Of a stretch of 64,000 nucleotides of DNA, positions 10,553 to 59,148 are shown piece after piece. The notes beneath the pieces are model-generated. The model saw only the letters and a program-made list of their open reading frames with translations. It was not told the DNA's origin and did no database searches. Numbering within the stretch: position 1 is the stretch's first letter; each line of letters opens with the position of its first letter. The DNA comes from an uncultured Alphaproteobacteria bacterium (lineage in GTDB: Bacteria > Pseudomonadota > Alphaproteobacteria > JAJTHO01 > G963706365), in contig OY970150.1 of NCBI GenBank assembly GCA_963706365.1, positions 1,005,864 to 1,069,863 of the forward strand, given 5' to 3'. The position numbers and the translations under genes are program-made.

Positions 10553-11863
10553 ATGCGTTTCTTACCCCATACCGAAAACCAGCGCAATGAAATGCGCGAA
10601 GCCGTTGGCATTCATCGCACTAAAGAGCTTTTTGTTGATGTCCCCAATGGTGCCAAGCTGTATATTGAAAAAACTGGCTTATCTAAAACAATGCCGGAAT
10701 TCGAAGTTGATCGCTATTTCCAGCAGTTAGCCGCTAAAAATAAATCCGATATGCCCTTTTTTATTGGCGGTGGCGTTTATAAACATCATGTTCCGGCCAC
10801 TGTGGATTATATTATTCAGCGTGGTGAATTTTTAACTTCCTACACCCCTTATCAACCGGAAGTATCGCAAGGTACTTTACAAGTGCTGTTTGAATTTCAA
10901 ACCCAAGTGGCGATGATAACCGGCATGGATGTGGCTAATGCCTCCCTGTACGATGGCTCCACAGCAGCGGTTGAAGCGCTGATGATGGCTAATCGAGTCA
11001 CAAAACGAAAAAAGGCTATCGTTTTAGAAAGCGTACATCCCCATTACAGGGAAGTGATGAACACCTATGCTGGCATGGTTGGCTTTGATGTTGAAACCGT
11101 GCAGCAACTACCAGAAACTATTGATAAGGATATATCCTGCGTTATTGTTCAGTATCCAAACTTTTTTGGCAGTATTGAAGACTATCAAACACTGGCCGAT
11201 ACCTGCCATGCAAATGGTGCTTTGCTTATTGCAGTGGTAACAGAAATTGTTGCATTAGGTGCACTAACACCACCTGGTGAGTGGGGGGCTGATATTGTGG
11301 CAGCAGAAGGCCAGTCTATTGGCGTGCCGATGGGGTTTGGAGGCCCGCATATTGGCTTGTTTGCCTGCAAGCAAAAATATATTAGGCAAATTCCTGGCCG
11401 CCTATGTGGTGAAACCGTTGATAGAGACGGCAAGCGTGGTTATGTTCTTACGCTTAATACACGCGAACAACATATTCGCCGCGATAAAGCCACCAGCAAC
11501 ATTTGCACCAATGCCGGCCTATGCGCCCTGGCTTTTTCGGTGCATTTATCACTGTTAGGCAACCAAGGTTATACGCATTTAGCGCATCTGAACCATGCAA
11601 AGGCCGTACAGCTTTCTGAAATGCTAGGCCGTATTGAAGGCGTAAAAATACTCAATAAAAACTTTTTCAATGAATTTACAATTGAATTACCCAAGCCCGC
11701 GGCCAATGTTTTAAACGCTATGCAACAACATGGTATGCTTGCGGGGCTTGATGCAGGTAAATGGTATCAAGGTCGTGAAAACCAGTTAATTATTGCCGTT
11801 ACAGAACTGGTGAAAGATGCAGAAATGGAACAATTTTCCACTGTTCTGCAAAGTGTTTTATAG
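10553..11863 (+). CDS. gcvPA: Glycine dehydrogenase (decarboxylating) subunit 1
   Basis: 436 aa with the typical P-protein N-terminal-half signature (SYTPYQPEVSQGTLQVLFEFQTQVAMITGMDVANASLYDG...). No gcvPB follows; a palindromic repeat element and a secretin gene follow instead. Confidence 0.9.
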   Translation: MRFLPHTENQRNEMREAVGIHRTKELFVDVPNGAKLYIEKTGLSKTMPEFEVDRYFQQLAAKNKSDMPFFIGGGVYKHHVPATVDYIIQRGEFLTSYTPYQPEVSQGTLQVLFEFQTQVAMITGMDVANASLYDGSTAAVEALMMANRVTKRKKAIVLESVHPHYREVMNTYAGMVGFDVETVQQLPETIDKDISCVIVQYPNFFGSIEDYQTLADTCHANGALLIAVVTEIVALGALTPPGEWGADIVAAEGQSIGVPMGFGGPHIGLFACKQKYIRQIPGRLCGETVDRDGKRGYVLTLNTREQHIRRDKATSNICTNAGLCALAFSVHLSLLGNQGYTHLAHLNHAKAVQLSEMLGRIEGVKILNKNFFNEFTIELPKPAANVLNAMQQHGMLAGLDAGKWYQGRENQLIIAVTELVKDAEMEQFSTVLQSVL

Positions 11864-11987
11864 TGCTTCCAAAATAAATCCGTGCGGAGGCGAGAGCAAG
11901 TAAAATTGAGCGCCGTGTATGCTTCATACATAAGCGAAATTTTGCGCCGCTCAGAGACCCTCACGGGTTTATTTTGGAAGTACTATA
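11859..11987. repeat. ~128-bp palindromic MITE/RPE-like element, copy 1
   Basis: Terminal inverted repeats TATAGTGCTTCCAAAATAAATCCGTG ... CACGGGTTTATTTTGGAAGTACTATA with an internal imperfect palindrome (GAGGCGAGAGC...GCTC.GAGACCCTC). Overlaps the gcvPA stop codon. Near-identical copies at 34305..34433 and 59020..59148. Confidence 0.8.
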
Positions 11988-12057
11988 TAGTTAGTTACAG
12001 TAGATAACACGGCTAACGAAATGTTAACCCTATCCAACTATTCTAACAGCAATAATA

Positions 12058-13818
12058 ATGATGGGTTGCGATATTTCTTTTGCCAGGCTTTTAGCCAGTG
12101 TCAGTATATGCTTGCTGCTAAGCAGTTGCGAGTATTATAACAAACGCCTGAATCCTAATATCTATGATTCTGACACAGGTCTTAGCCGTGAAGAATACAA
12201 AGATGCCATTACTCAAAAACAGGCAAAATCCCTGGCTAGCCGTAATGAAGCCGCTATCCCGCCGATGCACCCGATTACTTTTATTCCTCCAATTAACAAC
12301 CTGCCAGAAACAAAACGAGTGTCTATTTCCGTCACCCAGGATATACCGTTAAAAGAAGTTTTGTTTGAACTTAGCCGAAAATCTGGCCTAAATTTTAAGC
12401 TGGATTCCAATATTGAAGGCGGCATCAACTTTACCGCGTATAACGAACCTTTCATCAAGGTGATTGAAGGCATTACACGCACCGCCGGTTTACGCTATCG
12501 TTTTGAGGGCAATTTTCTAAAAATTGAACAAGACACGCCTTATTTTATTAACTATCAAGTCAACTTCTTAAACTTATTGCGCCGCGGCAGCAGCCAAACC
12601 TCTATTTCTACTGATGTGTTCTCTGGCTCCTTTGGGCAAGAAGGTGGCGGCAGCGCTGCAGATAACGGCTCTAATAGCCTGGTTGAATCGACTAGTGATG
12701 CTGATTTCTGGCTAGTAGTGGAATCTAATATTGCTAAAATGCTGAACGATGCAAGCGGCGGGGCAGAAGACCCGTTGTCAACTGTGCTGGGCATTCCCGG
12801 GCAGGAAGCTGTGCGCGAACGTGCCGGTATCAGCACCACCAGCCGCGTGGGTCCCTATTCCCGTATTACGAGTAACCGCCAGGCTGGCCTTGTTTCTGTT
12901 TTCGCAACAGAGGGAGAACACCGACGTGTGCTAGATTTCTTAAATACACTACGAGAACGCGTAAATTCCCAGGTAACAGTAGAAGCCAAAATCCTGGAAG
13001 TTACTTTAAACGATGATTATCGCAATGGTATAAACTGGCAAACCCTGTTTGATGTTGGTGCCGCCACGGTTTCCGCACGTGCACGCTTCGATTCCCCGGT
13101 GCTTAATAACCCGATTCAAAACTTTGAAGATAGCACTAATAATGACGTGGCTGTTGGTGTTAGAACCGGCGATTTTTCAGGTGTAATTAGTGCTGTGGAA
13201 AGTTTTGGTTCTACGCGCACTCTTTCCAGCCCCCGTGTAACGATCATCAATAACCAGCCTGCTATTATGAAAGTGGCGGAAAATCAGGTATTTTTCCAGC
13301 TAGAATTTGAACGCGTAGAAGGCACGCTGGATGAAGCAGACCGCACCAATACTTCCAGTAAAATTCTAACCGTACCCGTTGGCTTGGTGATGGCCTTGCA
13401 ACCGGCTATTGATAAAGCCAACCAAAAAATTATGCTGAATCTAAGGCCAACCATTTCACGCATCCAATCATTTGTGGATGATCCGGCTGTTTCTATTGCC
13501 TCTAATAACCAGGTAAAATCCAGTATTCCTGTGGTTGAGGTACGCGAAATTGATTCTGTGGTACACATGGATTCCGGCCAGGTTGTTTTAATGGGTGGGT
13601 TGATGCAAGAGCGTAGCCGCAACCAGGATCAAGGCGTGCCGTTTATTAGTCGTATTCCCGGATTTAATTTATTATTCGGCACCCGCGAACAGGAAAAAGA
13701 AGTCGTTGAACTTGTTATTTTATTAAAAGCGGAAATTGTCGATAATGGCGGTGTGACCGATCATGACCGTGCCTTGTACGAGCGCTTTATCAATGATCCT
13801 CGCCCTATAGAATTTTAG
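12058..13818 (+). CDS. Secretin-family outer-membrane lipoprotein (T4P/T2SS-type secretin, MshL/PilN/BfpB-like)
   Basis: 586 aa. Lipobox LLLSSC. Secretin N-domain-like region. C-terminal secretin domain (STRTLSSPRVTIINNQPAIMKVAENQVFF...VVLMGGLMQERSRNQDQGVPFISRIPGFNLLFG). Confidence 0.7.
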   Translation: MMGCDISFARLLASVSICLLLSSCEYYNKRLNPNIYDSDTGLSREEYKDAITQKQAKSLASRNEAAIPPMHPITFIPPINNLPETKRVSISVTQDIPLKEVLFELSRKSGLNFKLDSNIEGGINFTAYNEPFIKVIEGITRTAGLRYRFEGNFLKIEQDTPYFINYQVNFLNLLRRGSSQTSISTDVFSGSFGQEGGGSAADNGSNSLVESTSDADFWLVVESNIAKMLNDASGGAEDPLSTVLGIPGQEAVRERAGISTTSRVGPYSRITSNRQAGLVSVFATEGEHRRVLDFLNTLRERVNSQVTVEAKILEVTLNDDYRNGINWQTLFDVGAATVSARARFDSPVLNNPIQNFEDSTNNDVAVGVRTGDFSGVISAVESFGSTRTLSSPRVTIINNQPAIMKVAENQVFFQLEFERVEGTLDEADRTNTSSKILTVPVGLVMALQPAIDKANQKIMLNLRPTISRIQSFVDDPAVSIASNNQVKSSIPVVEVREIDSVVHMDSGQVVLMGGLMQERSRNQDQGVPFISRIPGFNLLFGTREQEKEVVELVILLKAEIVDNGGVTDHDRALYERFINDPRPIEF

Positions 13819-13819
13819 G

Positions 13820-16792: not shown

Positions 16793-16852
16793 GAAATTTT
16801 TAGCATAAATCCTTAACAACAGTTTAATAAACTGTTGTTATAGTTGGGAAAT

Positions 16853-19800
16853 ATGCAAAAAATATCTTCACCGGCGGCCGGACAACAAAAGCAGGTTTAT
16901 GCAGAACCCGGCCAAACCATTGAACTTGATATAGATATTAGCCAAGCCCAGGTTGACATTCTGGGCAGTGATATGATTTTGACCTTACCAAATGGTGGGC
17001 AAATTATTTTATCTGGCATGGCGGTTTCCCTGTTTGAACAAGATGCACCGAACTTAATTGTAGAGGGGCAAACTATTGATCCTAATATTTTATTAGGCCG
17101 CGTTGGATTGGTGCAAAATGTATCGGGTAAAGATGTCGCAATTTTAACCAGCATGCAAACCCCTGCAACAGAAAAAGCCGCGCAGGAAGTTTTGCAACAA
17201 AAATTGCAAAACATCGAAGTAAAGTTACAGGAAGCAGAACAGGCAGCAGAAATTGCGCAGAAGGAAGCCGATTTTAACGAACAATTTAAATTTATGGAGC
17301 CGCCAAAGGAAATTGTTGGCGAAAATATGGTCAGTGCTTCAAAAGGTACCAATGCACCGAGCAATAAAACGCTAGGGAATTTTGAACTGGGCGCGAAAAA
17401 AGTTTTTCAAAAATTTACCAGCAATGCAGAATCAGAAGAATCAATCCAGCAAGCCGCCCCGCCGGTTGATTTTAAACCCCCTGCGGTGCAATCTGAATTA
17501 ATTGTAGAACAAAGTGATGGCGGAACAATTGCTTTTGATACAAAGGTACAAGCGTTGCAAATATCAGCTAGCCAATCCCTTGCGGATAACGGCACCCTAA
17601 CCTTTTTGGGGGGAAGCGGTAGCGAGGCCGCAACCATTGATGGCAGTGCCTTAACACAAATTCAGGCAGAATTTATTGATACCAGCCGCCATAATCGTGA
17701 TGTTGTAATCGTGGCTGATAACAACACTTTTATTGATCAAAATTTGCTATCTAGAGTCATTGAATACGACCCCACTGTGCCAGATGGTTTTGATTTAACG
17801 TCACTGGTTATTAAAGGTATTCCCAACAACTATAATCTTGTGGGTTATACAGCCGATTCCAGCGGTAACTATCGCTTTGATGTCAACACATTATCAGGGG
17901 ATGTAGAAAAATTTATCATTCAATACGACCCCACCGCTTTTGGTAGTGCTGATGCCAATGGTAATGTGCAAACTTTTAATATTACCTTTGATTCTATTGC
18001 GCAAAGTAACGGCAGCGTTGTAGAAGCCGCCTACCCTAGTTTAACGGATTCAATCGTTGTTCCTGTGGCGGTGAAAGATGTTACGGAAAACAATTATACC
18101 TATAACGTTAATGGCGTTACAGGTTGGGTTTTTGATACAAACCCGAATGGCAATATTATTTTAACAGGCGACGGTAATGCAGATGTTACCGGCGGTTTTA
18201 CCAATGACCGTATTACGACTGGTTCCGGTAATGATATAATCAATGCCGGCAAGGGTGATGACTTTGTACGTACCAACAAAGGTGATGATATTATAAACGT
18301 TGGCACCGGTAATAATATTGTGGATGCTGGCGATGGTATTGATACGTTGACCTACAGCGACAGTAACAGCAATGTTAACGTTGACTTGATGAGCCCTGCA
18401 AACAGCGCCGGTTACATTGAATTAACTGTTGGCAGCAACCAAACTGACCAGGTGCGGGAAGTTGAAAATATTACCACTGGCGGTGGTAATGATACAGTAG
18501 CGGGTAATAATAGTAACAACACCTTAAAAACAGGTGCCGGGAATGACACCTTAACAGGCTATCTGGGGAATGATACTTTAGACGGCGGCGCGGGCAGTGA
18601 CACAGTTTCCTATGCCTATCGCGAGACCTATTCCAGCAGCGGTGTTACCGTTAACTTAAACAACAGCACCGTTAATCTTGCCAGTAATGATGTTGATACC
18701 ATTAGCAATATCGAAAACATTATCGGTACACGTTATAATGATACCCTAACAGGTAATTCGCAAAACAACACTTTTACAGCAGGCGCCGGTAATGACACCA
18801 TCGATTTAGGCACGGGTAATGACAGTGTTGATGGTGGCGATGGTATTGATCATCTAAAATTTACACAGCAAACCAGTGGTGTTACTTTAAACTTGCAACA
18901 GGGATCTGGTCAATCAGCCACTGGCGACACATTGACGGTACGTAACATAGAAGAAGTAACTGGCTCAAGTTTCAATGACACTTTAACAGGTGATAATCTA
19001 AACAATACTTTTTACAGCAGTGCTGGCAACGATGCTTATAATGGCAGTGGTGGCACCGATACTTTAAGCTATCAAACAGGCACAGCCGCCATCCAAGCTG
19101 ATTTTTCTGCCGGTACCGTTACAAAAAATAATGGTAATGATACCTTTTCAAATATTGAAACTGTCAAAGCAACCAATTTAAATGATACGCTTATTGGTGG
19201 TGGATCAGTTACTAATATTGATGGTGCTGGCGGCATAGACACTTTGTCTTATCAAACCCAAACAGATGCTGTTACAATTAATTTAAAAGATGGCACCACC
19301 ACGGGTGCTGTTACTCAATCTTTTAGCAACATAGAAAACGCCACGGGCGGTTCTGGCAATGATACTTTGCTAGGAAACAGTGGGAATAATATTCTGGCGG
19401 GTGGCGCTGGTATTGATACGGTTAGTTATGCCAATGCAACAAATGCGGTAAATGCCAGCTTACTGAGCAACAGTTCAACAGGATATGGTAATGATACATT
19501 TTCAAGTATGGAAATATTAATTGGCTCAAACTTTAGTGACCAATTAGAAGGAAATGCCGGCAATGACGAAGTCATTGGTGGCGGCGGTAACGATACTATT
19601 TTCTCTACCACCGGTAATGATATTATTGATGGTGGAACGGGTTACAACACCATATCCTATGTCAATTCTACCGATACGATTACCAGTATTGATTATACAA
19701 CGGTTGCAAGCACAGGCTATGTAACCATTAACTTTGTTTCTGGAAAATATGACCTGGTGCGTAATGTTGAACTTTATAAAGGTTCAGCCGGTAACGACGA

Positions 19801-22800
19801 AGTTGTTGGCGGCGGTGGCAGTGGTGCGGGTTTAGGAACAAATCCGGGATCTGGCGGCGGGTCAGGAGGTGGCAGTGGCGGAGGCGTTGTAACCATTGAT
19901 GGAGGAGATGGTACGGATAAAATAATTTTTGCTGCTGAAACCGCTGTTGTTGTTGTTGATTTACAAAACGGTACAGCCACAGGTTCCTTTGGTACTTATA
20001 ACTTTACTAGTTTTGAAAGTGTTGTCGGTGGTGTGAATAATGACACCCTAATTGGTAGTACAGCGGACAATATTATTGAAGCTAATGACGGAGACGATAC
20101 TGTAATTGGCACCACAGGTAATGATACCTTGGATGGAGGCAATGGCAATGATATCGTGGACTATAGTAATTTAACCAGCGGTATAACAGCTTCTTCTACC
20201 AGTGTTACGGGTAGTGGCTTTACCGATACTTTAAGTAATTTCGAAACCGTTATTACCACAGATTATGACGATGTTATTAACGATGATAGCGCCAGTACTG
20301 TTTATGAAACAGGCGATGGCAATGATACTATTAATGCCAATTCCGGCACCGACAGCTTTGATGGTGGAACCGGCACGAATAAGCTAAGTTACACAAGCCA
20401 TAGTAACAGTAGTGCAGGCATTAACGCAGATATGTCTGTGCGCGACGGTAACAGCTTTTTCAACATCACTATAGGTGGCGAAACAGACAAAGCAAAAAAT
20501 ATCCAGATTCTTGAAGGTAGCACAGGCAACGATATTTTAACCGGCGATAATAACGCCAATACCTTGCTGGGTGCCGGTGGTGATGACATTCTAAATGGTG
20601 GTGGCGGTAATGATACGCTGGATGGTGGCGATGGTAATGATACTGTAAGTTTTTCCGGTGCCTCTAGTGGCGTTAACCTTAACATGAACATTGTTGACGC
20701 TAATGGTTTTGCCAATGCAACAGTGGGCAGCGAAACAGATAAATTAAAAAGTATCGAAATTATTAATGGCTCCAGTTTTGATGATATTATCACCGGTGGC
20801 AGCAGTAATGATACAATATCAGGGGGTTCTGGTAATGATATTCTGGATGGCGGTGCAGGCCTAGATACAATTAACGGCGGTGGTGGCTATGATACAGCAA
20901 CGTATGTATCCCTATCACAAGGTGTTAGTGTTGCTGGCAGTGTGGTTACCGATAATGACGGTAATGTGGAAACATTAATTAATATTAATGCCATCAGGGG
21001 AACGAACGCTGGCGATACATTTATTGGCACCAGTGGTAACGATATTTATGGTGGCCTAGGTGGCAACGATACTTTCACCGCAACCAATGGTAATGATAGC
21101 TATGATGGTGGCGCCGATACAGATACTGTTACTTATGTTAACAGCAGCGAAAACCTGAACATTAGTTTACGTACAGGTTCTGCAACCGGCACACTATTGG
21201 GAACACATACCTTAACAAGCATTGAAAATGTTACGGGTGGTTCTGGTAATGATACAATAGAGGGCGGTGTTGGCGCCAATATTTTAAATGGTGGTGCGGG
21301 CAGCAATACATTGAGTTACGCCAATGCCATTGCTGGTGTTAGTATTGATTTAACAGCCAATACAGCCATTGATGATGGCGGTGCCACAGATACCATCAGT
21401 AATTTTACCAGTTTAAATGCTTCTGGCTTTAATGACACCTTAAAAGGCAGCACCGGTAGTGATACCCTAAATGCCGGCGCCGGTAATGATACGATAATTT
21501 CTAGCACAGGTAACGACACCATTGACGGTGAAGCCGGTAACGATAGCCTGTCTTATGCAGCCACATCAACGGCTATTAATGTTAACTTATCTAGCGTAAA
21601 CGGCAGTGGTTTTGCCACTATTACGCAGAATACCAAAACAGATTTGGTGAAAAACATTCAAACATTTACCGGTTCCACCGCGGGTGACACTTTTATAGGT
21701 TCCAGCACCGCTGATATTTTCTATGGTGGTAGTGGTGCTGATACCTTCAGTGGCCGGGGTGGTAATGATATATTTGAAGGGGGCAATGATACAGATACGG
21801 CTGATTACGCTTATTCTGCTAATGCCATTACGGTTGATCTAACCAATCTGGTTGGTGGCTATGGGCAAGTTAGCTTTGCTTCCAGCAGCGAGGTGGACAG
21901 CCTTAATAGTATAGAAAATATTATCGGTACTGCCGGTAATGATACGTTTACCGGTGGCGCTGGTGCTAATAACATTAATGGTGGTGGCGGTAACGATACT
22001 TTTTATGGCGATGCTGGCAACGATTCCCTTGATGGGAACACTGGTAGTGATACTGTTGACTTTAGTGCCAATAGCACAGCTGTAAATGTTACATTAAACA
22101 GCCAGTCTGCCACCGCACAAACCATTACTTCTGGTTATGGCACCGACAGTATTCGCTATATTGAAAATATTACCACAGGCGGCGGTAATGATACCATTGA
22201 TACGCGCAATGATGCCGGTAATAACACCATTGTTACTAATGGTGGCAATGATACCATTTATGCCGGTGCGGGCAGCGATAGCTTAGATGCCGGTAGTGGC
22301 ACGAACACTTTACGTTTTGACGGTATGGCCAGCGCTGTGGTTCTGGATTTATCCACTTTGAATGGCAGTGGTTTTGCCACTGCAACTTCTGGCGCAAATA
22401 GCAGCCTGGTAAAAGGTTTTGGCACCGTTTACGGCAGTTCCAATGGCGATAATATTACCGGCACAAGTGGCAATGATATACTTTATGGCCAGGATGGTTC
22501 CGACACGCTTACAGGTGGCGCAGGCGATGATCTGATTATTGACCGCAATACAACCTATGCCACCAATAACACCAACATTATTAACGCCGGTGACGGTAAT
22601 GATACGGTAGAGGCCTACGTTAATGGCAGCACCATAGACGGTGGCAATCAAACCGATATTTTAACCTATAATGCTGGTAGTGGCACAAGCTCTAACCTAA
22701 CAGTGAACCTTACAGCAGAAACAGTTACAAATGGTGTTTATACCGACAATATCTCTAATTTTGAAGAAATTCGAACCAGCAATGGTAATGACAGTTTCAT

Positions 22801-23647
22801 TGGTGATGCCAATGGTCAATCATTCTATGGGAATGCCGGTAACGATACATTCCGGGGCTTAGGAGGAAATGACTTCTTCTATGGCGGTAATGATACAGAT
22901 ACCGTTAGCTATATAGACGCAGGCAGCGGTGTTACAGCTAATTTAACAACCAATACTGCCAGCGATGGTGATGGCGGAACCGATACATTTAACAGCATAG
23001 AATCATTAACGGGTTCTAACTATGATGATTTGTTAACGGGCAATGTGGGGGGCAACACGTTGTCTGGCGGAACCGGTAATGATACCCTTGTAGGCACCGC
23101 CGGGAATGATACCCTGAATGGTGGAACAGGCACCGATGATACAATAGATTATACTGCCCAAACCAGTGCGGTTAATATAGATCTAGCCACCAACAACGCC
23201 AGTGGTGCAGGCATTGATACCGATACCTTCTTGAATATTGATCGTATTAATACAGGTTCTGGCAACGATAGTTTAACAGGTGACGCGGCAACATTATTCG
23301 CCAGCACCCTAAAATTAAACTTTGCCACAGGAAACGACACTGTTACAGCCACCAGTGGTACTGTTGGTACAGATGCGGGGGTTCTTGATACGTTATACGA
23401 CAACGTGGAAACCCTAAACTTTCTTGGCGCCAATACCAACAGCGGCAACTTTGTTATTGATGGCGACGAAGTTGTTGGCCTAACAGATTCTAACAATGCC
23501 TTGCGGTTAGATGTAAACAGCTTATTCGGTTTAACCGTTAATGGCGGTAGTTATACCGTTTCATCGTCTACGACAGGCAACCATACTGTTTATGAATTTA
23601 ATACCGGTGTAACACAAGTGGCACAGTTGGACGTCTATGTTACCTAG
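16853..23647 (+). CDS. Giant RTX-repeat (hemolysin-type Ca-binding nonapeptide) secreted protein/adhesin, T1SS substrate
   Basis: About 2265 aa. No signal peptide. Dozens of GGxGNDTLxG-type nonapeptide repeats throughout, and an acidic C-terminus ending ...AQLDVYVT. The ATG at 16853 is preferred over the TTG at 16844 used by the ORF track. Immediately followed by T1SS export genes. Confidence 0.85.
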   Translation: MQKISSPAAGQQKQVYAEPGQTIELDIDISQAQVDILGSDMILTLPNGGQIILSGMAVSLFEQDAPNLIVEGQTIDPNILLGRVGLVQNVSGKDVAILTSMQTPATEKAAQEVLQQKLQNIEVKLQEAEQAAEIAQKEADFNEQFKFMEPPKEIVGENMVSASKGTNAPSNKTLGNFELGAKKVFQKFTSNAESEESIQQAAPPVDFKPPAVQSELIVEQSDGGTIAFDTKVQALQISASQSLADNGTLTFLGGSGSEAATIDGSALTQIQAEFIDTSRHNRDVVIVADNNTFIDQNLLSRVIEYDPTVPDGFDLTSLVIKGIPNNYNLVGYTADSSGNYRFDVNTLSGDVEKFIIQYDPTAFGSADANGNVQTFNITFDSIAQSNGSVVEAAYPSLTDSIVVPVAVKDVTENNYTYNVNGVTGWVFDTNPNGNIILTGDGNADVTGGFTNDRITTGSGNDIINAGKGDDFVRTNKGDDIINVGTGNNIVDAGDGIDTLTYSDSNSNVNVDLMSPANSAGYIELTVGSNQTDQVREVENITTGGGNDTVAGNNSNNTLKTGAGNDTLTGYLGNDTLDGGAGSDTVSYAYRETYSSSGVTVNLNNSTVNLASNDVDTISNIENIIGTRYNDTLTGNSQNNTFTAGAGNDTIDLGTGNDSVDGGDGIDHLKFTQQTSGVTLNLQQGSGQSATGDTLTVRNIEEVTGSSFNDTLTGDNLNNTFYSSAGNDAYNGSGGTDTLSYQTGTAAIQADFSAGTVTKNNGNDTFSNIETVKATNLNDTLIGGGSVTNIDGAGGIDTLSYQTQTDAVTINLKDGTTTGAVTQSFSNIENATGGSGNDTLLGNSGNNILAGGAGIDTVSYANATNAVNASLLSNSSTGYGNDTFSSMEILIGSNFSDQLEGNAGNDEVIGGGGNDTIFSTTGNDIIDGGTGYNTISYVNSTDTITSIDYTTVASTGYVTINFVSGKYDLVRNVELYKGSAGNDEVVGGGGSGAGLGTNPGSGGGSGGGSGGGVVTIDGGDGTDKIIFAAETAVVVVDLQNGTATGSFGTYNFTSFESVVGGVNNDTLIGSTADNIIEANDGDDTVIGTTGNDTLDGGNGNDIVDYSNLTSGITASSTSVTGSGFTDTLSNFETVITTDYDDVINDDSASTVYETGDGNDTINANSGTDSFDGGTGTNKLSYTSHSNSSAGINADMSVRDGNSFFNITIGGETDKAKNIQILEGSTGNDILTGDNNANTLLGAGGDDILNGGGGNDTLDGGDGNDTVSFSGASSGVNLNMNIVDANGFANATVGSETDKLKSIEIINGSSFDDIITGGSSNDTISGGSGNDILDGGAGLDTINGGGGYDTATYVSLSQGVSVAGSVVTDNDGNVETLININAIRGTNAGDTFIGTSGNDIYGGLGGNDTFTATNGNDSYDGGADTDTVTYVNSSENLNISLRTGSATGTLLGTHTLTSIENVTGGSGNDTIEGGVGANILNGGAGSNTLSYANAIAGVSIDLTANTAIDDGGATDTISNFTSLNASGFNDTLKGSTGSDTLNAGAGNDTIISSTGNDTIDGEAGNDSLSYAATSTAINVNLSSVNGSGFATITQNTKTDLVKNIQTFTGSTAGDTFIGSSTADIFYGGSGADTFSGRGGNDIFEGGNDTDTADYAYSANAITVDLTNLVGGYGQVSFASSSEVDSLNSIENIIGTAGNDTFTGGAGANNINGGGGNDTFYGDAGNDSLDGNTGSDTVDFSANSTAVNVTLNSQSATAQTITSGYGTDSIRYIENITTGGGNDTIDTRNDAGNNTIVTNGGNDTIYAGAGSDSLDAGSGTNTLRFDGMASAVVLDLSTLNGSGFATATSGANSSLVKGFGTVYGSSNGDNITGTSGNDILYGQDGSDTLTGGAGDDLIIDRNTTYATNNTNIINAGDGNDTVEAYVNGSTIDGGNQTDILTYNAGSGTSSNLTVNLTAETVTNGVYTDNISNFEEIRTSNGNDSFIGDANGQSFYGNAGNDTFRGLGGNDFFYGGNDTDTVSYIDAGSGVTANLTTNTASDGDGGTDTFNSIESLTGSNYDDLLTGNVGGNTLSGGTGNDTLVGTAGNDTLNGGTGTDDTIDYTAQTSAVNIDLATNNASGAGIDTDTFLNIDRINTGSGNDSLTGDAATLFASTLKLNFATGNDTVTATSGTVGTDAGVLDTLYDNVETLNFLGANTNSGNFVIDGDEVVGLTDSNNALRLDVNSLFGLTVNGGSYTVSSSTTGNHTVYEFNTGVTQVAQLDVYVT

Positions 23648-23719
23648 GCATATCCTGATAGCGACAGGTTTATAAAAATTTAATCTTATCGCACCATACT
23701 GCACCTTAGAGAGCGTAAA

Positions 23720-25096
23720 ATGGTGCAAAACAACTATAATAACAAGCAACGCACGTTACAAACTGGTCAAATTGGCTGGTATGTGCCGCATAAAATGTGG
23801 GTCACACTGGTGGCCTTTTTCAGTTTATCTTTTGTTATGCGTGAGGATCTGATTGAAAGATTTCAATCGCATGTCAGTTTGAACGGCCTTATTTTAACCA
23901 CCATGATGGTTGTTGTGGTTATGGCTTTTAACAACATCTTCCATGTGCAACGCGCCGCCAACCTTTTAAAACGTATAGAAAACTTTGAAGATAATCCTGC
24001 TGCACAGGTGCAGGGGAAACTGGTTAAGGAATTACGTGGTAGTTATATTGATAACTATTATTTCCAGCAGCGCTTATCCAATTATGAAATTGGTAAAGAT
24101 GAATTTGTAAAGTTTGATGACAAGCAGGCAATGCTAATTAAATCGAAAGTTGGTTTTCGGTCTAATAACATGCGTAACACGGTGCAATACCTAGCAGGTG
24201 TTTTGGTTATGCTGGGCTTGATTGGTACGTTCTGGGGTTTGCTTGAAACCATTACAGCCGTTGGTCAAGCTATGGGAAGCTTAACGGGTGATTTGAATGA
24301 AGAAGGCAGCATGGAATCTTTCCTTGCAGCCATTAGTAAACCTTTGCAAGGTATGGGGGTTGCCTTTAGTGCCTCACTATTCGGGCTGTCCGGCTCTTTA
24401 TTAGGTGGTCTGCTAAACAGTTTTTGCGGTAAGGGAATGAACGACTTTATCGAACATTTTGGTATCTGGATAGATACCCGCATTCCGCAAGTACAACAAA
24501 AACCAAAAGCAGAATTAAACCCGGCAGAATTAATTGAACAACACAATAAAACCGTGGTGGCCGCCCTGGAAGATGTTCTAACCGGCCTACGCAAACAGTC
24601 ACAAACCATGTTTGTACAGTTAACAGAAGTTATGACGGAATTTTCCAGATTTTCGCAGCAGCAACAAACCGCCCTATCGGTGATTAGTAATGAAAGCAAA
24701 GTAAATGTGCGCTTGGCTGATAGCATGGAACAAGCCGTATTTGGCCTGAAACAAGAAGCACAATTAATACGAGAAAGAGTCGTTTCGCTGCCAGAAATTC
24801 ACCAATCTTTAGGCAATGATGTGCGCCATGTCGCCAATATTATTGCCGATTCGCAAGACAGTATTAGCCAGCATATTGTTAACAGCAGTGTAGATAGCAA
24901 TAAAACCCGCACCACCTTAAATAGCTTGCTGGAATCCTATGCCGCCATGGTTTCCTTAATGGAAAGACTCATTCAGCAAGACAAACTGGAAAAGCAAGCA
25001 CCAGAAACCACCAGCCAGATTATTATGGAAATGCAACAGGTGTTAAAACAACAGCTGGATGCGGCCAATCAACCGATTTCTTTAAAGGTGGGTTAA
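23720..25096 (+). CDS. MotA/TolQ/ExbB-family proton-channel protein with a ~200-aa coiled-coil cytoplasmic tail (SiiB-like)
   Basis: 458 aa. Four predicted TM helices; TM3/TM4 carry the family signature (LAGVLVMLGLIGTFWGLLETI...GVAFSASLFGLSGSLLGGL). A long Q/E/K-rich C-terminal tail. The stop overlaps the next gene start (TAAAATG). Confidence 0.65.
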   Translation: MVQNNYNNKQRTLQTGQIGWYVPHKMWVTLVAFFSLSFVMREDLIERFQSHVSLNGLILTTMMVVVVMAFNNIFHVQRAANLLKRIENFEDNPAAQVQGKLVKELRGSYIDNYYFQQRLSNYEIGKDEFVKFDDKQAMLIKSKVGFRSNNMRNTVQYLAGVLVMLGLIGTFWGLLETITAVGQAMGSLTGDLNEEGSMESFLAAISKPLQGMGVAFSASLFGLSGSLLGGLLNSFCGKGMNDFIEHFGIWIDTRIPQVQQKPKAELNPAELIEQHNKTVVAALEDVLTGLRKQSQTMFVQLTEVMTEFSRFSQQQQTALSVISNESKVNVRLADSMEQAVFGLKQEAQLIRERVVSLPEIHQSLGNDVRHVANIIADSQDSISQHIVNSSVDSNKTRTTLNSLLESYAAMVSLMERLIQQDKLEKQAPETTSQIIMEMQQVLKQQLDAANQPISLKVG

Positions 25097-25097
25097 A

Positions 25098-25676
25098 ATG
25101 TCAGACGATCCCGAAAGCACGATCCCCTGGCCTGGTTTTGTGGATATTCTTTCCACCGTTATCATCGTGTTCGTTTTCTTTATGATGATGACGTCAACCA
25201 TCATTTTCTTGATGGCGCAAAAACAGCAAGAAAAAGCTGTTTCAGATGCTAAGCAAGAGGTTATTGAAGACATAAACAATGTTGATATCAAACAGGTATT
25301 ACTGGAAAATAGTCAGCTTAAAAAACAAGTTGAAGATATGGTTCGGGTAAAATCTATTTTAGGGGAGTCAGAATCACAAATTGTTTCAAAGCAAGAAAAC
25401 GGCGTTAAAATTACTTTTAATGATTTTGGCGTAACGTTATTGCCCGAAACAACAGAATCTATAAAATCTTATTTAAGCAATGTAAGAAAAGTACAGTTAC
25501 AAGCTTATGTGCCGCAAAATTATGCAGCCACCCGGGAAATCGCCCTGAACCGTGCTTTGAACGTGCGAAATTTACTAATTCAGGCAGGTTTAAAACCAGA
25601 AAATGTGGAACTGAAAATTTTGACAGACACCACCGGAAACGAGGGAGCATATGGCCATATTCTCCTTTCATATTAG
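25098..25676 (+). CDS. MotB/TolR-like single-pass membrane protein with C-terminal OmpA-like region (SiiA-like)
   Basis: 192 aa. N-terminal TM (PGFVDILSTVIIVFVFFMMMTSTIIF). The C-terminus (REIALNRALNVRNLLIQAGLKPENV) resembles the end of OmpA/MotB peptidoglycan-binding domains. Overlaps the TolC start by 26 nt. Confidence 0.5.
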   Translation: MSDDPESTIPWPGFVDILSTVIIVFVFFMMMTSTIIFLMAQKQQEKAVSDAKQEVIEDINNVDIKQVLLENSQLKKQVEDMVRVKSILGESESQIVSKQENGVKITFNDFGVTLLPETTESIKSYLSNVRKVQLQAYVPQNYAATREIALNRALNVRNLLIQAGLKPENVELKILTDTTGNEGAYGHILLSY

Positions 25677-27027
25677 AACCGCTTTCTTATCACTGGCTAT
25701 TGCTCAAAATGCCCAGGCGCTTTCCTTACACGAAGTGATAGAGCGTGCTATTATTAACAGCCCAGAGCGCAGCATTGCCGCCGCGCAAATTGCCCAGGCC
25801 GAAGCCACCGTAGCAGAAGAGAAATCAGGTTATAAGCCACAAGTTAATGCCAAAGCCGATATTGGCCGCGAATATAATGATCGTTTTGCCCTAAGGCAGG
25901 GTGCCGTTGAAGCCAGTGGTTACAACACTGGTAAAAGCGCCAGTTTAAACATTAGGCAAATGCTGTTTGATGGTTACACAACCAAACAAACCGTTGCCAG
26001 ACGTTTAGCACAGGTAAAAGCCTCAACTTTCAACCAGAATAAAATTACAGAAGAACTGATTAACAGCACGATTGAAATTTATATGCAGCTGTATCAGTTT
26101 CAGCGAACCGTTATTGCCGCAAAAGAAAATTTAGTAACCCTAAAAACCATTGCTGATATTGTTAATACCCGTTTTGAAGAAGGGGACACAACAGAAGCTG
26201 AAAAAAACTATATAAAATCACGCGTTGCCAATGCACAGCAAGAATTAATTAATGCTGAAGCAGCTTTGGCGGATTCTAAAAGCGCTCTGGTTTTTCTGAT
26301 TGGCGATGTAGAACCTTTCGATGCCGCATTGCCTATTCTAAGTAATTTGGCAACTTTTCTACGCAATACCGATAACGATATATTCGTTAAACAGGCCTTT
26401 AATAATAACAGCGAGCTAAAAGTAAATACAGCTGAGTTAAAAGCCGCAAGATATGACATGGATAGCTCAAAAGGCGCTTACTACCCTAATCTGGATTTTG
26501 TTGTAAATGGTAGCCGTGCTGACGACCAAGGTGGTGACACCGGCAAAGCTGAAAGCGCCAGTGCCAAACTGGAGTTAACCTATACGTTATTTGATGGTGG
26601 ATTACGCGCCGCAACCCTGGACAGAAAGCTAGCCAAAATTAAAGAGGTACGATCACGGCAAGTACAATTGCGCCGCGAAATCAAACAACAAGTAGAACAA
26701 ACCATGAACCAGCTGCAAAGCAGCAGCCAGGAAATTCTATCAGTTATGGAAGAAGGCGAAGCCAACAAACGGCTGGAAGAGGTTTATATCGAACAATTTC
26801 AGTATGGCGATGGTGATGTGGATATCATTAACTTAGTAGAGGCGAGAGAACGGATTTTTTCTGCCAAGGTAAAAAAGTTTCGATTGGCATCTGAAGTAGT
26901 GAATGCCCATTACACGGCCAATCGTTTGACAGGCTTGCTATTGCCAGAATTCTGCACTTTGTCTTGTGATAGTACTGCAAGACCCCTAACGCCTGTGGAT
27001 ACAGAGAAAAATAGCGATGGAACATAA
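25651..27027 (+). CDS. TolC-family outer-membrane efflux/secretion channel
   Basis: 458 aa with signal peptide (AFLSLAIAQNAQA) and a two-repeat OEP architecture rich in alpha-helical/coiled-coil segments. Overlaps the downstream ABC gene by 11 nt. Confidence 0.8.
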   Translation: MAIFSFHIRTAFLSLAIAQNAQALSLHEVIERAIINSPERSIAAAQIAQAEATVAEEKSGYKPQVNAKADIGREYNDRFALRQGAVEASGYNTGKSASLNIRQMLFDGYTTKQTVARRLAQVKASTFNQNKITEELINSTIEIYMQLYQFQRTVIAAKENLVTLKTIADIVNTRFEEGDTTEAEKNYIKSRVANAQQELINAEAALADSKSALVFLIGDVEPFDAALPILSNLATFLRNTDNDIFVKQAFNNNSELKVNTAELKAARYDMDSSKGAYYPNLDFVVNGSRADDQGGDTGKAESASAKLELTYTLFDGGLRAATLDRKLAKIKEVRSRQVQLRREIKQQVEQTMNQLQSSSQEILSVMEEGEANKRLEEVYIEQFQYGDGDVDIINLVEARERIFSAKVKKFRLASEVVNAHYTANRLTGLLLPEFCTLSCDSTARPLTPVDTEKNSDGT

Positions 27028-28663
27028 AGATGCTTTTTTCTTAAAGGAGGCGCTGCAGATTCCTAGAACATTGTTGCGCGATATTCTTATAACCAGCCTG
27101 TTTCTAAATTTGCTAGCTGTTGCCCTGCCGTTATTTACCCGCGTAGTTTACGACAAAGTTATTCCCAATTTTGCCATCGAAACCCTGTGGGTATTGTTTT
27201 CCGGCATGGCCATGGTCTTGGTATTTGACAGCCTATTTAAGGCTAGCCGTAATTATATCATTCAGCATATTTCCAGCAAAACCCTGCAAGAATTAGAACA
27301 GCCGTTTATGACGCACCTGTTAAAAATACCAGCGCAACATAATCTGGCCAAAACAAATTACCATTTAAACAGCTTGCAAGAAATTTGCCGCTATCGGTTT
27401 CAATTACTAATTCCGGCAACTGTTGATATTCCTTTTGTACTGGTCTTTTTGCTAATCATTTATCTTATCTGCCCACCCATGGCGTTGGTGCCTTTGGGGG
27501 TTGGCCTTTCATTAATTGCCCTGCAAATAGCGTTTCATCATAAATTAAACAAGGCACTGGTTCATAGCCAGGAAGCCACAGAAGAACGATTGCAAACGGT
27601 TGCTGATCTTCTGCAAGGTCGTCAAACCATTCGGCAACTAGCCCACTATACGCCTTTTATCAATGATTGGAAAACAGCCAGCAGCAGAGCCGCAATTAAC
27701 AACAGCAGAATGACTTTTCTATACCAAATGGTGATGAGCCTTTCACAAAGTTGCTTGCTGTTTAACACGGTGTTGTTAATGATGGTCGGTGTTTATCAGG
27801 TGCAGGCCTCAACATTAAGTATTGGTGGGTTGCTGGCCATCAGCTTGCTAAGTGCCCGTATTTTAACGCCACTAATGTCGATTGGTGAATTATTAGCCAA
27901 ACGTCCAAAAATTCTTATGGAATTAAAACACATCAATCAGGTGATGCAAATTCCTGACGAAGGCACTGGGGCAGCTATTGCCTTTGCACCAAAACTTACC
28001 CTAACAAATGCAACCGTTGATCCTATTTTAAAAAATTGTAACTTTAGTTTACAAGCAAAAGAAAAATTGGCAATTGTAGGCAGCAGTGGTGCAGGCAAAA
28101 CCACATTATTACAAATATTATCCAAAGAGCGCACCCTTTCTTCCGGCAGTGTTTTATGGGATGATCGCAAGGACATTGCACCCGCCCATTTACGCCAACA
28201 AATGGGTATTGTTGAACAACACCCTTATTTTTTTGGACGTAGTGTGCGCGATAATTTATGCCTTGAACATCAATATGCCGATGCGGAACTTTTTAAAACA
28301 CTCGATTTGGTTGGCTTAACCACTTTTATAAAAGCCACCGGGCATGGGCTGGATTTAATGCTGGATAACGGCGGGCATAACCTTTCTGGCGGCCAGCGGC
28401 AATGCCTGGCATTGGCACGTGCCCTATTAAGACAACCTGATATTTTGTTGATGGACGAACCCACCAGCATGATGGATCATCAAATGGAACTGCAACTGGT
28501 ACAAAATTTGCGTTTTGCTTTAAAAAATAAAACAGTTGTCCTTGTTACCCACCGCACGCCGCTGCTCTCCCTAGTAGATAAAATTCTGGTTTTGGAAAAC
28601 GGGCAAGTACAGCAATTTGGCGATAAAAACACCATCCTAAATCAGCAGGCCAAGCATGGATAA
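27017..28663 (+). CDS. Type I secretion ABC transporter (HlyB-like permease/ATPase, no C39 peptidase domain)
   Basis: 548 aa. N-terminal 6-TM domain plus NBD with Walker A GSSGAGKTT, signature LSGGQRQCLALARAL, and Walker B ILLMDEPTS. Confidence 0.85.
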   Translation: MEHKDAFFLKEALQIPRTLLRDILITSLFLNLLAVALPLFTRVVYDKVIPNFAIETLWVLFSGMAMVLVFDSLFKASRNYIIQHISSKTLQELEQPFMTHLLKIPAQHNLAKTNYHLNSLQEICRYRFQLLIPATVDIPFVLVFLLIIYLICPPMALVPLGVGLSLIALQIAFHHKLNKALVHSQEATEERLQTVADLLQGRQTIRQLAHYTPFINDWKTASSRAAINNSRMTFLYQMVMSLSQSCLLFNTVLLMMVGVYQVQASTLSIGGLLAISLLSARILTPLMSIGELLAKRPKILMELKHINQVMQIPDEGTGAAIAFAPKLTLTNATVDPILKNCNFSLQAKEKLAIVGSSGAGKTTLLQILSKERTLSSGSVLWDDRKDIAPAHLRQQMGIVEQHPYFFGRSVRDNLCLEHQYADAELFKTLDLVGLTTFIKATGHGLDLMLDNGGHNLSGGQRQCLALARALLRQPDILLMDEPTSMMDHQMELQLVQNLRFALKNKTVVLVTHRTPLLSLVDKILVLENGQVQQFGDKNTILNQQAKHG

Positions 28664-34250: not shown

Positions 34251-34304
34251 TGTTATAATTGTTCCAGTTTTTTCATAGCATTGTTCACACAAAAGCTCGG
34301 GTTT

Positions 34305-34433
34305 TATAGTGTTTCCAAAATAAATCCGTGTGGAGGCGAGAGCAAGTAAAATTGAGCGCAGTGTATTCTTCATACATAAGCGAAATTTTGCACAGCTCGC
34401 AGCCCCTCACGGGTTTATTTTGGAAGCACTCTA
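34305..34433. repeat. ~128-bp palindromic MITE/RPE-like element, copy 2
   Basis: TATAGTGTTTCCAAAATAAATCCGTGTGGAGGCGAGAGCAAGTAAAATTGAGCGC...GCGAAATTTTGCACAGCTCGCAGCCCCTCACGGGTTTATTTTGGAAGCACTCTA. Confidence 0.8.
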
Positions 34434-53271: not shown

Positions 53272-53327
53272 AATTATCGTATATAGCCAACTGCTTCAAT
53301 AATGAACCATCTCGCCAAATGATATAA

Positions 53328-53965
53328 ACCGTCACTCCAGCGCAGGCTGGAGTCTATGCATCTAAAAGTGTTATGTATACGGCGATTCAGAATATGTTTC
53401 AAACCCCACGGCATGGGTTCCAGCCTTCGCTGGAACGACAGAGCGGTATATGTTAGAACCACACTTTTCAAAATACAATACCGTCACTCCAGCGCAGGCT
53501 GGAGTCTATGCCGCTGGACGTGTTATTTATACGGTAATGCAGAATATGTTTCAAACCCCACGGCGTGGGTTCCAGCTTTCGCTGGAACGACGGAACGGTA
53601 TATTTAGAGCATACTTTTCAAAGCATAAAACCGTCACCCCAGCGCAGGCTGGAGTCTATGCCGCTGGACATGTTATTTATACGGTAATGCAGAATATGTT
53701 TCAAACTCTACGGCATGGGTTCCAGCCTTCGCTGGAACGACGGAACGGTATATTTAGAGCATACTTTTCAAAGCATAAAACCGTCACCCCAGCGCAGGCT
53801 GGAGTCTATGCCGCTGGACATGTTATTTATACGGTAATGCAGAATATGTTTCAAACTCTACGGCATGGGTTCCAGCCTTCGCTGGAACGACAGAGCGGTA
53901 TATGTTAGAACCACACTTTTCAAAATACAATACCGTCACTCCAGCGCAGGCTGGAGTCCATGCCG
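53328..53965. repeat. Tandem array of ~4.3 copies of a ~150-bp unit, each carrying two short hairpins
   Basis: Units start at ~53328, 53479, 53630, 53780 and 53932 and are ~90-95% identical. Each contains ACCGTCACTCCAGCGCAGGCTGGAGTCTATGCC (hairpin ccagc-gcag-gctgg) and GGGTTCCAGCCTTCGCTGGAACGA (hairpin ttccagc-cttc-gctggaa). Related single motifs at 52292..52323 and, inverted, at 53980..54014. Confidence 0.85.
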
Positions 53966-54059
53966 CTAAAATCAAAGCTGCTGAAAATCCTCAGGCACAG
54001 ATTCCACCCTGCGGCGGAATGACCTATTAAATGTGCGCAGCAATCTTTTACTCATAGCG

Positions 54060-56620: not shown

Positions 56621-56659
56621 ATCATTGAATATATGCAGAAATTCCTTAATTAAAAAGAC

Positions 56660-57541: not shown

Positions 57542-57545
57542 AATA

Positions 57546-57793: not shown

Positions 57794-57869
57794 AGGAGTA
57801 TAGCTCAATTGGTAGAGCACTGGTCTCCAAAACCAGGGGCTGTGGGTTCGAGTCCCTCTACTCCTGCCA
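57794..57869 (+). tRNA. tRNA-Trp (anticodon CCA)
   Basis: AGGAGTA/TACTCCT acceptor, D-loop AATTGGTA, anticodon loop CTCCAAA, T-loop TTCGAGT, encoded CCA. In the conserved position upstream of secE-nusG. Confidence 0.9.
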
Positions 57870-57899
57870 TTTATGGCGTATGATAAAAGGAAAGTTACT

Positions 57900-58208
57900 A
57901 TGGCAACGGATATTAAAAACAAAAGCAAACGAGCAAAACATTCAGCAGCGCCCAAAAGTGCCAAGCGAAAAGGAACGCAAGACGCCCATGCACCGTATGC
58001 CGAAGATGATACTATTGCCAAAGCCCCCAATGTTTCACCCGCGCAGTATATTCGCAATGTAAAAGGTGAAATGGCCAAAGTTATTTGGCCAACCCGCAAA
58101 GAAACGATTCAAAGCACGATTATGGTTATTATCATGGTTGTCTTTGTTTCTTTATTCCTGTTTAGCATTGATACATTTTTTGCCTGGGCAGTGGAAAAAA
58201 TTATATAA
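57900..58208 (+). CDS. secE: Preprotein translocase subunit SecE
   Basis: C-terminal TM and signature (IRNVKGEMAKVIWPTRKETIQSTIMVIIMVVFVSLFLF). The ATG at 57900 has an AAAGG RBS; the ORF track starts 27 nt upstream at 57873. Confidence 0.8.
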   Translation: MATDIKNKSKRAKHSAAPKSAKRKGTQDAHAPYAEDDTIAKAPNVSPAQYIRNVKGEMAKVIWPTRKETIQSTIMVIIMVVFVSLFLFSIDTFFAWAVEKII

Positions 58209-58221
58209 TTAAGGTTTTATC

Positions 58222-58794
58222 ATGAGTGTTATAGCAAAAGAAAATACAGATTCAGAACTACGCAAACGCTGGTACGTTATTCACGTTTATGCCACGTTTG
58301 AAGACAAAATTGCGGCCAATATTATGGAGCAAGCAGAGGAACATAACCTACAAGATTTATTCGGGGAAGTCGTTATCCCCTCCGAAACTGTAACAGAAGT
58401 GCGTCGCGGCCAAAAAGTTGATGTCGATAAGAAATTTTTTCCTGGCTATATTTTGATCCAGATGGCCATGACAGATCAAACCTGGCATTTGGTTAAAAAC
58501 ACTAACCGTGTTACCGGCTTTTTAGGCGGTAGCGGCAAAGGTAAGCCCGTGCCACTTTCCAATGCCGAAGCAAAACGCTTCCGCGCACAACTGGAAGAAG
58601 GCTTCACCGAAACACGCAGCGGCGTTATGTATGAAGTGGGTGAAACAGTGAACGTTATTGATGGCCCATTCGAAGGCTTTAACGGTGTGGTAGAAGAAGT
58701 GGAAGAAGCCCACAACAAACTTAAGGTTTCAGTTTCTATTTTTGGCCGTGCCACACCAGTTGAATTGAGCTTTCAGCAGGTTGAAAAAGGTTAA
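58222..58794 (+). CDS. nusG: Transcription termination/antitermination factor NusG
   Basis: 190 aa. NGN domain ([16 protein letters not shown]) and KOW domain ([21 protein letters not shown]). Confidence 0.9.
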
Positions 58795-59019
58795 TCTCAA
58801 GAGCTTGCGCGGCAACCCACGCATAAGTTGGAAGCACTATATTTTCTGAGAAAATTTTTTTCGAGAAAGGGCGGAATAACGAACTATTTTGTATCTTTTT
58901 CAAAGGGATTTGCAGCGAAAAAGGCGAAATTCTACTTGTGCGTGGTTTTTGGGTAAGCTCTAAGGTGCGTAAAGTTCATATTAAAGATGGAACCATGTTC
59001 ATCAAAACTGGTTGAGTAA

Positions 59020-59148
59020 TATAGTGCTTCCAAAATAAATCCGTGTGGAGGCGAGAGCAAGTAAAATTGAGCGCAGTATATTCTTCATACATACGCGAAA
59101 TTTTGTGCCGCTCGCAGCCCCTCACGGTTTTATTTTGGAAGCACTATA
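59020..59148. repeat. ~128-bp palindromic MITE/RPE-like element, copy 3 (plus a solo terminal fragment at 58829..58848)
   Basis: TATAGTGCTTCCAAAATAAATCCGTGTGGAGGCGAGAGCAAG...CTCACGGTTTTATTTTGGAAGCACTATA. The solo fragment is GTTGGAAGCACTATATTTTC at 58829. Confidence 0.8.

Follow-up and report, generated by a model that had tools for sequence, protein, structure and literature searches.

A dispersed 129-bp palindromic repeat with TA tips, probably a new MITE family, at gene boundaries of an uncultured alphaproteobacterium

Background

Miniature inverted-repeat transposable elements (MITEs) of bacteria are non-coding sequences of less than 200 bp with terminal inverted repeats and TA termini, a target-site duplication and transcripts that fold into long stem-loops (PMC2229807, PMC5896051). 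They are mobilised in trans by co-resident insertion sequences (IS) (PMC6382973), an example of a TA-targeting MITE being RUP with IS630-Spn1 (PMC2229807). A further group of small palindromic repeats is formed by the Correia elements, whose published repeat variants all begin TATAGTGGATTAA (PMC5039591, PMC9778887) and on whose hairpins RNase III acts (PMC2649163). The present analysis concerns a palindromic element of 129 bp in a 64,000-nucleotide stretch of DNA (hereafter referred to as the window) from an uncultured alphaproteobacterium (GenBank assembly GCA_963706365.1, contig OY970150.1, positions 1,005,864 to 1,069,863), where a prediction made from the sequence alone had pointed to a family of MITE-like or RPE-like repeats at gene boundaries.

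The description of a dispersed, palindromic, MITE-like repeat at gene boundaries is supported by the analysis: the element is small and non-coding, carries terminal inverted repeats with TA tips, occurs as dispersed copies with unrelated flanks at non-genic sites and forms a stable stem-loop. We consider it likely that the element represents a new MITE family, that is, a non-autonomous DNA transposon.

Results and discussion

Copies and termini of the element

Three copies of the element lie in the window exactly where they had been predicted, all in the same orientation, and a fourth, inverted copy was found past the window end (Table 1, in which the copies follow the plus-strand numbering of the window), so that four copies have been seen within about 64.4 kb. 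The length of 129 bp is that of the element as written and may alternatively be read as 125 bp plus one TA on each side. Calling the three window copies near-identical, as was done originally, is slightly generous, since any two of them are 91.5-93.8% identical, 15 positions being variable, and identity to their own consensus is 94.6-97.6% (blastn-short). The fourth copy is identical to the reverse-complemented consensus at 55 of 59 nt (nhmmer E-value 1.9e-15). No further copy, intact or degenerate, was detected in the 64-kb window with blastn-short or nhmmer --max.

Table 1. Positions of the repeat copies, the neighbouring genes and other repeats considered in the text
Feature	Position	Strand	Remarks
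Copy 1	11859..11987	+	between gcvPA and secretin gene (12058-13818)
Copy 2	34305..34433	+	between tolB and serB, antisense to both
Copy 3	59020..59148	+	between nusG and virB10
Copy 4	contig L041 5223-5281, ~344-402 nt past window end	inverted	56 nt after virD4 stop
gcvPA	10553-11863	+	NCBIfam
gcvPA TAG stop	11861-11863	+	element nt 3-5
serB, longest open reading frame	33414-34373	-	first 23 codons are element sequence
tolB	34447-35736	-	NCBIfam; stop 34447-34449
nusG	58222-58794		NCBIfam
virB10	59299-60849		NCBIfam
virB11	60884-62035		NCBIfam
'Solo terminus'	58828..58841	+	exact 14-nt match TTGGAAGCACTATA to element right end
'Type B' palindromic repeat	58800..58961	.	~160 bp, directly after nusG stop
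Degraded IS5-family element	about 48907-50105		DDE_Tnp_1 and DUF772 domains, frameshifted transposase; ends GGAGCCTCTGCGAAAG / GGAGTCTCTGCAAAAG
MITE copies of genome JAZDLJ01	L006 1630-1748; L014 6246-6337; L021 3022-3241; L023 553-664, 2858-3097

The terminal inverted repeats, originally given as 25 bp, are indeed present and measure 26 nt, of which 25 are complementary, the exception being a constant G.T mismatch at position 21. When the window was searched with the 26-nt terminus TATAGTGCTTCCAAAATAAATCCGTG at up to three mismatches, six matches were obtained, corresponding to the three left ends and the three reverse-complemented right ends, while shuffled sequences gave none. The termini begin TATAGTG (end sequence TATAGTGCTTCC; the outer end has also been given as TATAGTGCTTCCAAAATAAAYCCGTG); each of the six tips in the window carries TA and five of them TATA, the right end of copy 2 reading TAGA. 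Similarity between the copies ends exactly with the outer TATA, left and right, and the flanks are unrelated.

With 129 bp, the element falls within the size range of about 100-400 bp taken for bacterial MITEs. Internal stop codons occur in four of the six reading frames of the element, and the other two open with a stop at the element tip and then stay open. The repeat had been proposed as a dispersed element as opposed to a known tRNA or non-coding RNA gene confined to three places, and this distinction holds: none of the copies overlaps a tRNA, a tmRNA or an Rfam family (the region of copy 3 being checked to E-values up to 10), and the fourth copy lies past the window end. The G+C content of the element is 42.6-44.2% against 43.3% for the window, with only the terminal repeats being A+T-rich (31-35% G+C); the A+T-richness relative to the genome that is a usual, not strict, feature of MITEs is therefore not seen. 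The copies differ by 6-8% and are thus probably old and mostly passive; this divergence, together with the genome-like G+C content, points to a family long established in the genome and not to a recent burst.

Insertion at the end of gcvPA and the target site

Copy 1 had been predicted to supply the stop codon of gcvPA, and this is borne out by its junctions, ..GTGTTT/TATAGTG...GTACTATA/TAGTTAG, where the TAG of the element terminates the gene. A second TAG stands directly behind the right-hand TA of copy 1, as expected for an insertion into the TA of a last sense codon TTA. The site reads ...GTT T[TA][TAG TGC...CAC TA][TA] TAG TTAG, and deletion in silico of the element plus one TA yields ...GTT TTA TAG, with the same ...SVL end before the stop. 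The GcvPA protein terminates in ...LQSVL and many homologues stop at the same position, for example with ...EVL.

The element would thus have inserted into the last sense codon of gcvPA, its own TAG restoring the stop and leaving the protein unchanged under a TA model, and a stop codon recreated in this manner would explain why the insertion was tolerated. A direct repeat outside the 129 bp was not found, the sole candidate being the outer TA or TATA. The reconstruction of gcvPA, as read from the sequence, favours a duplication of TA, and insertion into a TA dinucleotide is the most likely mode that we infer. Two alternatives are possible: a 4-bp duplication of TATA, for which the original GcvPA would have been 2 residues longer, and insertion with no duplication, for which it would have been 6 residues longer. 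In general terms, a protein may stay the same even where its stop codon comes from a repeat.

Further copies implied by short-read contigs

The window is part of a contig of 1,867,446 bp. The Logan contigs of run ERR12040027, a short-read dataset of the same organism, were compared with the window. Logan contigs are constructed with all 31-mers distinct (PMC12424806), and each contig that reaches an element ends inside it. At copy 1, contig L002 stops at nt 57 of the element and L039 restarts at nt 65; at copy 2, L037 ends at nt 30; at copy 3, L001 stops at nt 29 and L040 and L041 restart at nt 103. A 22.4-kb contig spans exactly the interval from copy 1 to copy 2, and the 5,281-bp contig L041 begins in copy 3 and ends in copy 4. 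No 30- or 31-mer of copy 1 recurs in the other window copies, and the only ones common to copies 2 and 3 begin at nt 9-29, so the k-mers shared by the window copies cannot explain the breaks, and more copies elsewhere in the 1.87-Mb genome are implied. In our own reading of the variant list, nt 64-94 form the only 31-mer of copy 1 that is free of copy-specific variants, and a restart at nt 65 is what would be predicted if nt 64-94 were common to other genomic copies. The element explains the fragmentation of short-read assemblies of this organism at these sites.

Folding and possible roles in transcripts

Each of the three window copies folds as one long hairpin in RNA folding of the whole element (plus strand, -62 to -64 kcal/mol, z -10 to -10.6), in agreement with what had been predicted. 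The internally self-complementary core that formed part of the prediction is less evident: folded alone as DNA, the 77-nt core gives z values of -1.0, -3.0 and -1.9, i.e. it is weakly to moderately self-complementary, and most of the hairpin stability therefore comes from the terminal repeats. A co-transcribed copy would form a hairpin of about -63 kcal/mol that could alter mRNA processing or stability, as in Correia elements; such an effect on mRNA is a conjecture by analogy, and a role of the repeat as a recombination substrate is likewise conjecture.

The stability of this hairpin, the location of all copies at the ends of genes or between genes transcribed convergently or in series and the start of copies 1 and 4 within 0-56 nt of a stop codon could also be expected of a structural motif selected by the host, i.e. 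a REP/BIME-like or terminator-like hairpin kept at gene ends for mRNA stability, for stopping read-through or for binding a nucleoid protein, its spread being secondary. This explanation is regarded as unlikely, because no T-tract follows the hairpin at the window copies, scans for terminator-like and promoter-like signals around each copy remain at the chance level of shuffled sequences, and copies 1 and 3 have the orientation of their neighbouring genes and copy 2 the opposite one; nor is it always the transcribed strand that folds more stably. Substitutions among the three copies disrupt base pairs as frequently as they preserve them, and compensatory ones are not seen, a comparison to which n=3 gives no statistical power, and 26-bp terminal repeats with TA tips are the signature of a transposon and not of REP sequences. 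The same scans bear on a family of small RNA genes, each copy with its own promoter, for which the tip sequence TATAGT might serve as a -10-like hexamer if the flank provides a -35, as for Correia elements (PMC2649163). We hold such a gene family to be very improbable: promoter-like matches are no commoner than in shuffles, Rfam gives no match at E-values up to 10, a terminator is lacking, and the copies show no preferred orientation with respect to the neighbouring genes.

Mobilisation and origin of the family

If the element is a MITE, it would have spread through the chromosome by cut-and-paste or copy-and-paste transposition, a transposase encoded elsewhere would recognise its 26-bp terminal inverted repeats, and the surviving copies would be those that landed in intergenic DNA or at extreme gene ends. 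The only transposase of the window belongs to a degraded element of the IS5 family (Table 1), which was considered as a parent and rejected since its ends, GGAGCCTCTGCGAAAG, are unrelated to those of the 129-bp element. By analogy with known families, an enzyme of the IS630/Tc1-mariner type is the leading guess for the mover, with about an even chance of being correct.

Several observations weigh against the assignment to a mobile MITE family. Four copies have actually been seen, the larger genome-wide number being deduced from contig breaks; no transposase with matching ends is present in the window; and TA, being a palindrome, merges with the terminal base pairs of the inverted repeat. The Logan run was searched for an empty site and has the element at all three window sites, and the lack of compensatory substitutions mentioned above belongs here as well, within the limits of three copies. 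Comparative support is also lacking, as searches of 185,579 species genomes, the JGI metagenomes, IMG/VR and the PLSDB plasmids gave no homologue. The nearest GcvPA relatives are only 58-64% identical, which indicates that the lineage is poorly sampled; the best relatives of GcvPA and GcvPB are Rhodospirillales-like.

The individual searches agree with this result. An exact 22-nt terminal-repeat pattern had no match in genome, metagenome or viral contigs, a looser two-ended pattern gave 27 matches in genome contigs, all of them unrelated, an outer-end two-ended pattern gave 2 irrelevant matches in metagenomes, and blastn of the consensus against the PLSDB plasmids gave none. Among the sequences examined was the apparently unrelated metagenome-assembled genome JAZDLJ01 (G+C 34-38%, anaerobe-type genes), which has a multi-copy MITE family of its own, of about 90-120 bp and with the ends TAGACATCTTTCCAAAATAA (Table 1). 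It was rejected as a homologue, the shared inner 11-mer having been imposed by the search pattern.

Copy 2, the start of serB and the comparison with RPE

Copy 2 follows the tolB stop at a distance of 13 nt and precedes ATG 34250, the probable start of serB, by 55 nt. As originally predicted, it extends the serB open reading frame (ORF) upstream: the longest ORF begins at an ATG inside the element (34373), and the annotated 319-aa product (P0122) uses that start. In-frame starts outside the element are TTG 34292 and ATG 34250, and the extension is probably an artefact of ORF calling. The product from ATG 34250 opens MIFTLIG..., in our reading the N-terminal domain's first strand, with about 77 residues preceding the DMDST motif. 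Solved SerB structures were compared without settling the start, and exact look-ups of the shorter SerB and of TolB had no matching record. The element thereby flags a probably mis-started serB annotation.

Rickettsia palindromic elements (RPEs) are, like the present element, palindromic repeats (105-146 bp) of an alphaproteobacterium with long stem-loop folds (PMC2229807); they are known to insert in frame into genes for proteins and RNAs, whereas all copies are non-genic here. An RPE-like element inserting in frame and adding peptide segments would be compatible with a length of 129 bp, which is divisible by three, with the two frames that are open after the initial tip stop and with the 23 element-coded residues of annotated SerB. 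When the six-frame peptides of the element were compared with 5.8 billion proteins, however, only the serB ORF of the window matched; the N-terminal domain motif of SerB starts outside the element; and the net insertion under the TA model is 127 bp, i.e. out of frame. The RPE-like character attributed to the repeat is thus not borne out, also in view of the internal stops in four of six frames, and this explanation is considered highly improbable.

Gene boundaries and breaks in gene order

About 11% of the window is non-genic and all three window copies lie there (P about 0.0014 under random placement). The original prediction had suggested that the elements may explain local breaks in gene order. 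The gcvPB gene, which directly follows gcvPA in three relatives (contigs L003, L035 and L036), is absent from the window, and the break after gcvPA coincides with copy 1; a GcvPB protein search gave no sequence from the contig of the window among the best 120 matches listed. Normally the genes behind nusG are rplK-rplA and the gene behind tolB is pal. In the window, repeats and then virB10-virB11-virD4 of a type IV secretion system (T4SS) come after nusG, and copy 2 and serB after tolB. A causal role of the element in these breaks is disfavoured by tolB being also parted from the genes usually found upstream of it, at a junction where no element lies. One hypothesis is that the element caused rearrangements or that the T4SS module moved as part of a composite transposon.

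The position of the copies at the broken conserved orders gcvPA-gcvPB, nusG-rplK and tolB-pal would also suit copies that are leftovers of segmental duplication or recombination and not of transposition. Such duplication is largely refuted by the abrupt end of similarity at the terminal TATA on both sides, with unrelated flanks, and we attach almost no credence to it.

The predicted location of copy 3 at the junction of nusG and the T4SS genes is confirmed by the NCBIfam assignments, the copy following nusG at a distance of 225 nt and preceding virB10 by 150 nt; virD4 comes next after virB11 and runs off the window end. Copies 3 and 4, the latter inverted, bracket virB10-virB11-virD4 in the manner of a composite transposon. 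It is conceivable, if improbable, that the family is a distant relative of the Correia elements, having the cleavage-proximal tip TATAGTG, the 26-bp repeats and the TA target in common with them through a transposase of one class, that the 1.87-Mb genome may then still contain the full-length parent IS, and that copies 3 and 4 may have carried the three genes into the nusG-rplK junction as a MITE-bounded composite. With 4 of about 48 intergenic gaps occupied, a pair of copies around a three-gene cluster is not unlikely by chance according to a rough estimate. Movement of the T4SS module by a pair of MITEs would, if true, raise the importance of the repeat.

The spacer between nusG and virB10 holds two different palindromic repeats. 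The solo terminus that had been reported at 58829-58848 exists as an exact 14-mer at a slightly different position (Table 1) and sits in the second of these repeats, named type B here. Extended by two flanking nucleotides, it and the left end of copy 3 make up a perfect inverted repeat of 16 nt; the solo terminus was rejected as a decayed half-copy since the upstream sequence beyond the 14 nt is unlike the element. The type B repeat has arms of about 33 nt, AAGAGCTTGCGCGGCAACCCACGCATAAGTTG at 58799-58830 (motif also given as AAGAGCTTRCSCGRMAACCCACGYATAAGTTG) and an imperfect inverted copy at about 58932-58963. The motif begins 4 nt past the nusG stop, the solo terminus overlaps the 3' end of the first arm, and the motif recurs directly after the virD4 stop (L041, about 5185-5218), where it abuts copy 4. 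The region 58795-58970, which takes in both nusG-side arms and the ~100 nt separating them, folds into a second long hairpin (-60.2 kcal/mol, z -5.0), the single arms having no significant fold.

Other features of the window

Other repeats in the window include a tandem array at 53326-53967, comprising 4.2 copies of a 150-bp unit with 91% matches and overlapping an ORF (53450-53908) without a Pfam match, and an inverted repeat at 44212-44286 with 27-nt arms, 85% complementary, and a 21-nt loop, directly upstream of an ORF (44285-44698) without a family match. Two regions encode repeat-rich proteins: a 2267-aa RTX-repeat protein with genes for type I secretion behind it (an outer-membrane factor, an ABC exporter and HlyD) at 16844-29877, and a 1121-aa Calx-beta/RTX protein with internal repeats of about 720 bp, adjoining tolB, at 35774-39139. 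A glycine riboswitch aptamer lies upstream of gcvT (8840-8922), with just one aptamer reaching the gathering score. The corA gene (1003-1978) is apparently split into two overlapping ORFs, a Logan contig ending inside it at 1580, and the ORF for the small subunit of ribonucleotide reductase (3845-4600) covers only profile positions 3-249 of 281.

In comparison with the Logan contigs, the window has single-base insertions at 9005, 9201, 9841, 28951 and 31825, which put gcvT (at two sites), an HlyD-type gene and phaR out of frame, the Logan contigs having intact versions of these genes, and small clusters of substitutions at 9027-9648, 30823-31125 and 63174-63840. These differences may be either indel errors of the assembly or strain differences and early pseudogenes.

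Comparison with known systems

The element consists of 26-bp terminal repeats and a 77-nt core, unlike the doublet of REP sequences that makes up a REPIN, and no Y1-transposase (RAYT) domain was found among the window ORFs scanned. QMITE1 and QMITE2 of Coxiella burnetii, the MITEs of an intracellular bacterium, resemble it in overlapping gene ends and in supplying stop codons or C-terminal residues (PMC5896051); compared by description, they differ in size and in their variable direct repeats of 2-3 nt or 7-11 nt. With the MITEs of the IS630/Tc1-mariner type, such as RUP of Streptococcus pneumoniae, the element has in common the TA tips and presumably the TA target, terminal inverted repeats, a size of about 100-130 bp, an intergenic location and presumed mobilisation in trans (PMC2229807). 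It differs from them in that the window contains neither an IS630-family transposase nor matching IS ends, and in that the TA duplication is deduced.

In design, the element is like the Correia repeat enclosed elements (CREEs, also NEMIS) of Neisseria, which also have 26-bp terminal inverted repeats, the identical terminal heptamer TATAGTG, TA tips, T-rich flanks, a hairpin formed by the whole element and an intergenic location; solo or partial ends occur in Correia elements too (PMC2649163). The size of 129 bp falls between the CREE classes of 104-108 and 153-157 bp. An ungapped comparison of the termini with the Correia variant TATAGTGGATTAAATTTAAACCGGTACGG gave 19-20 identical positions of 29 nt (shuffle p 0.002-0.008), mostly due to the heptamer. 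Of 5000 TA-preserving shuffles, 8-42 scored as well, and beyond the heptamer alone the similarity is marginal (178-707 of 5000). Only the first 7 nt of the 26-bp Correia repeat are identical, the limit for calling a CREE being 3 mismatches (PMC9778887).

Real 107-bp and 155-bp elements from a Neisseria gonorrhoeae chromosome filed in PLSDB served as CREE references; this collection files two 2.17-Mb N. gonorrhoeae chromosomes, NZ_CP119140.1 and NZ_CP119142.1 (L038), as plasmids. In local alignment, the similarity of the core to the two references is at chance level, 469 and 1959 of 2000 shuffles, respectively, scoring as well. A generic consensus for integration host factor (IHF) was not seen by eye in the element, and the published sequence of the CREE IHF site was not searched for. 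CREEs are reported to be unique to Neisseria (PMC5039591), and the present host is an alphaproteobacterium. With unrelated cores, a repeat beyond the calling limit and a host outside Neisseria, the element was rejected as a Correia element.

As judged from these alignments, the likeness to Correia elements is one of design and not of membership, and the identity of the tips gives a lead towards a shared transposase and no proof of one, the comparison having been chosen post hoc. The likeness would matter more if it reflected a shared transposase, as the enzyme that moves Correia elements is unknown. The kind of element described here is well known, while the family, absent from every collection searched, is new.

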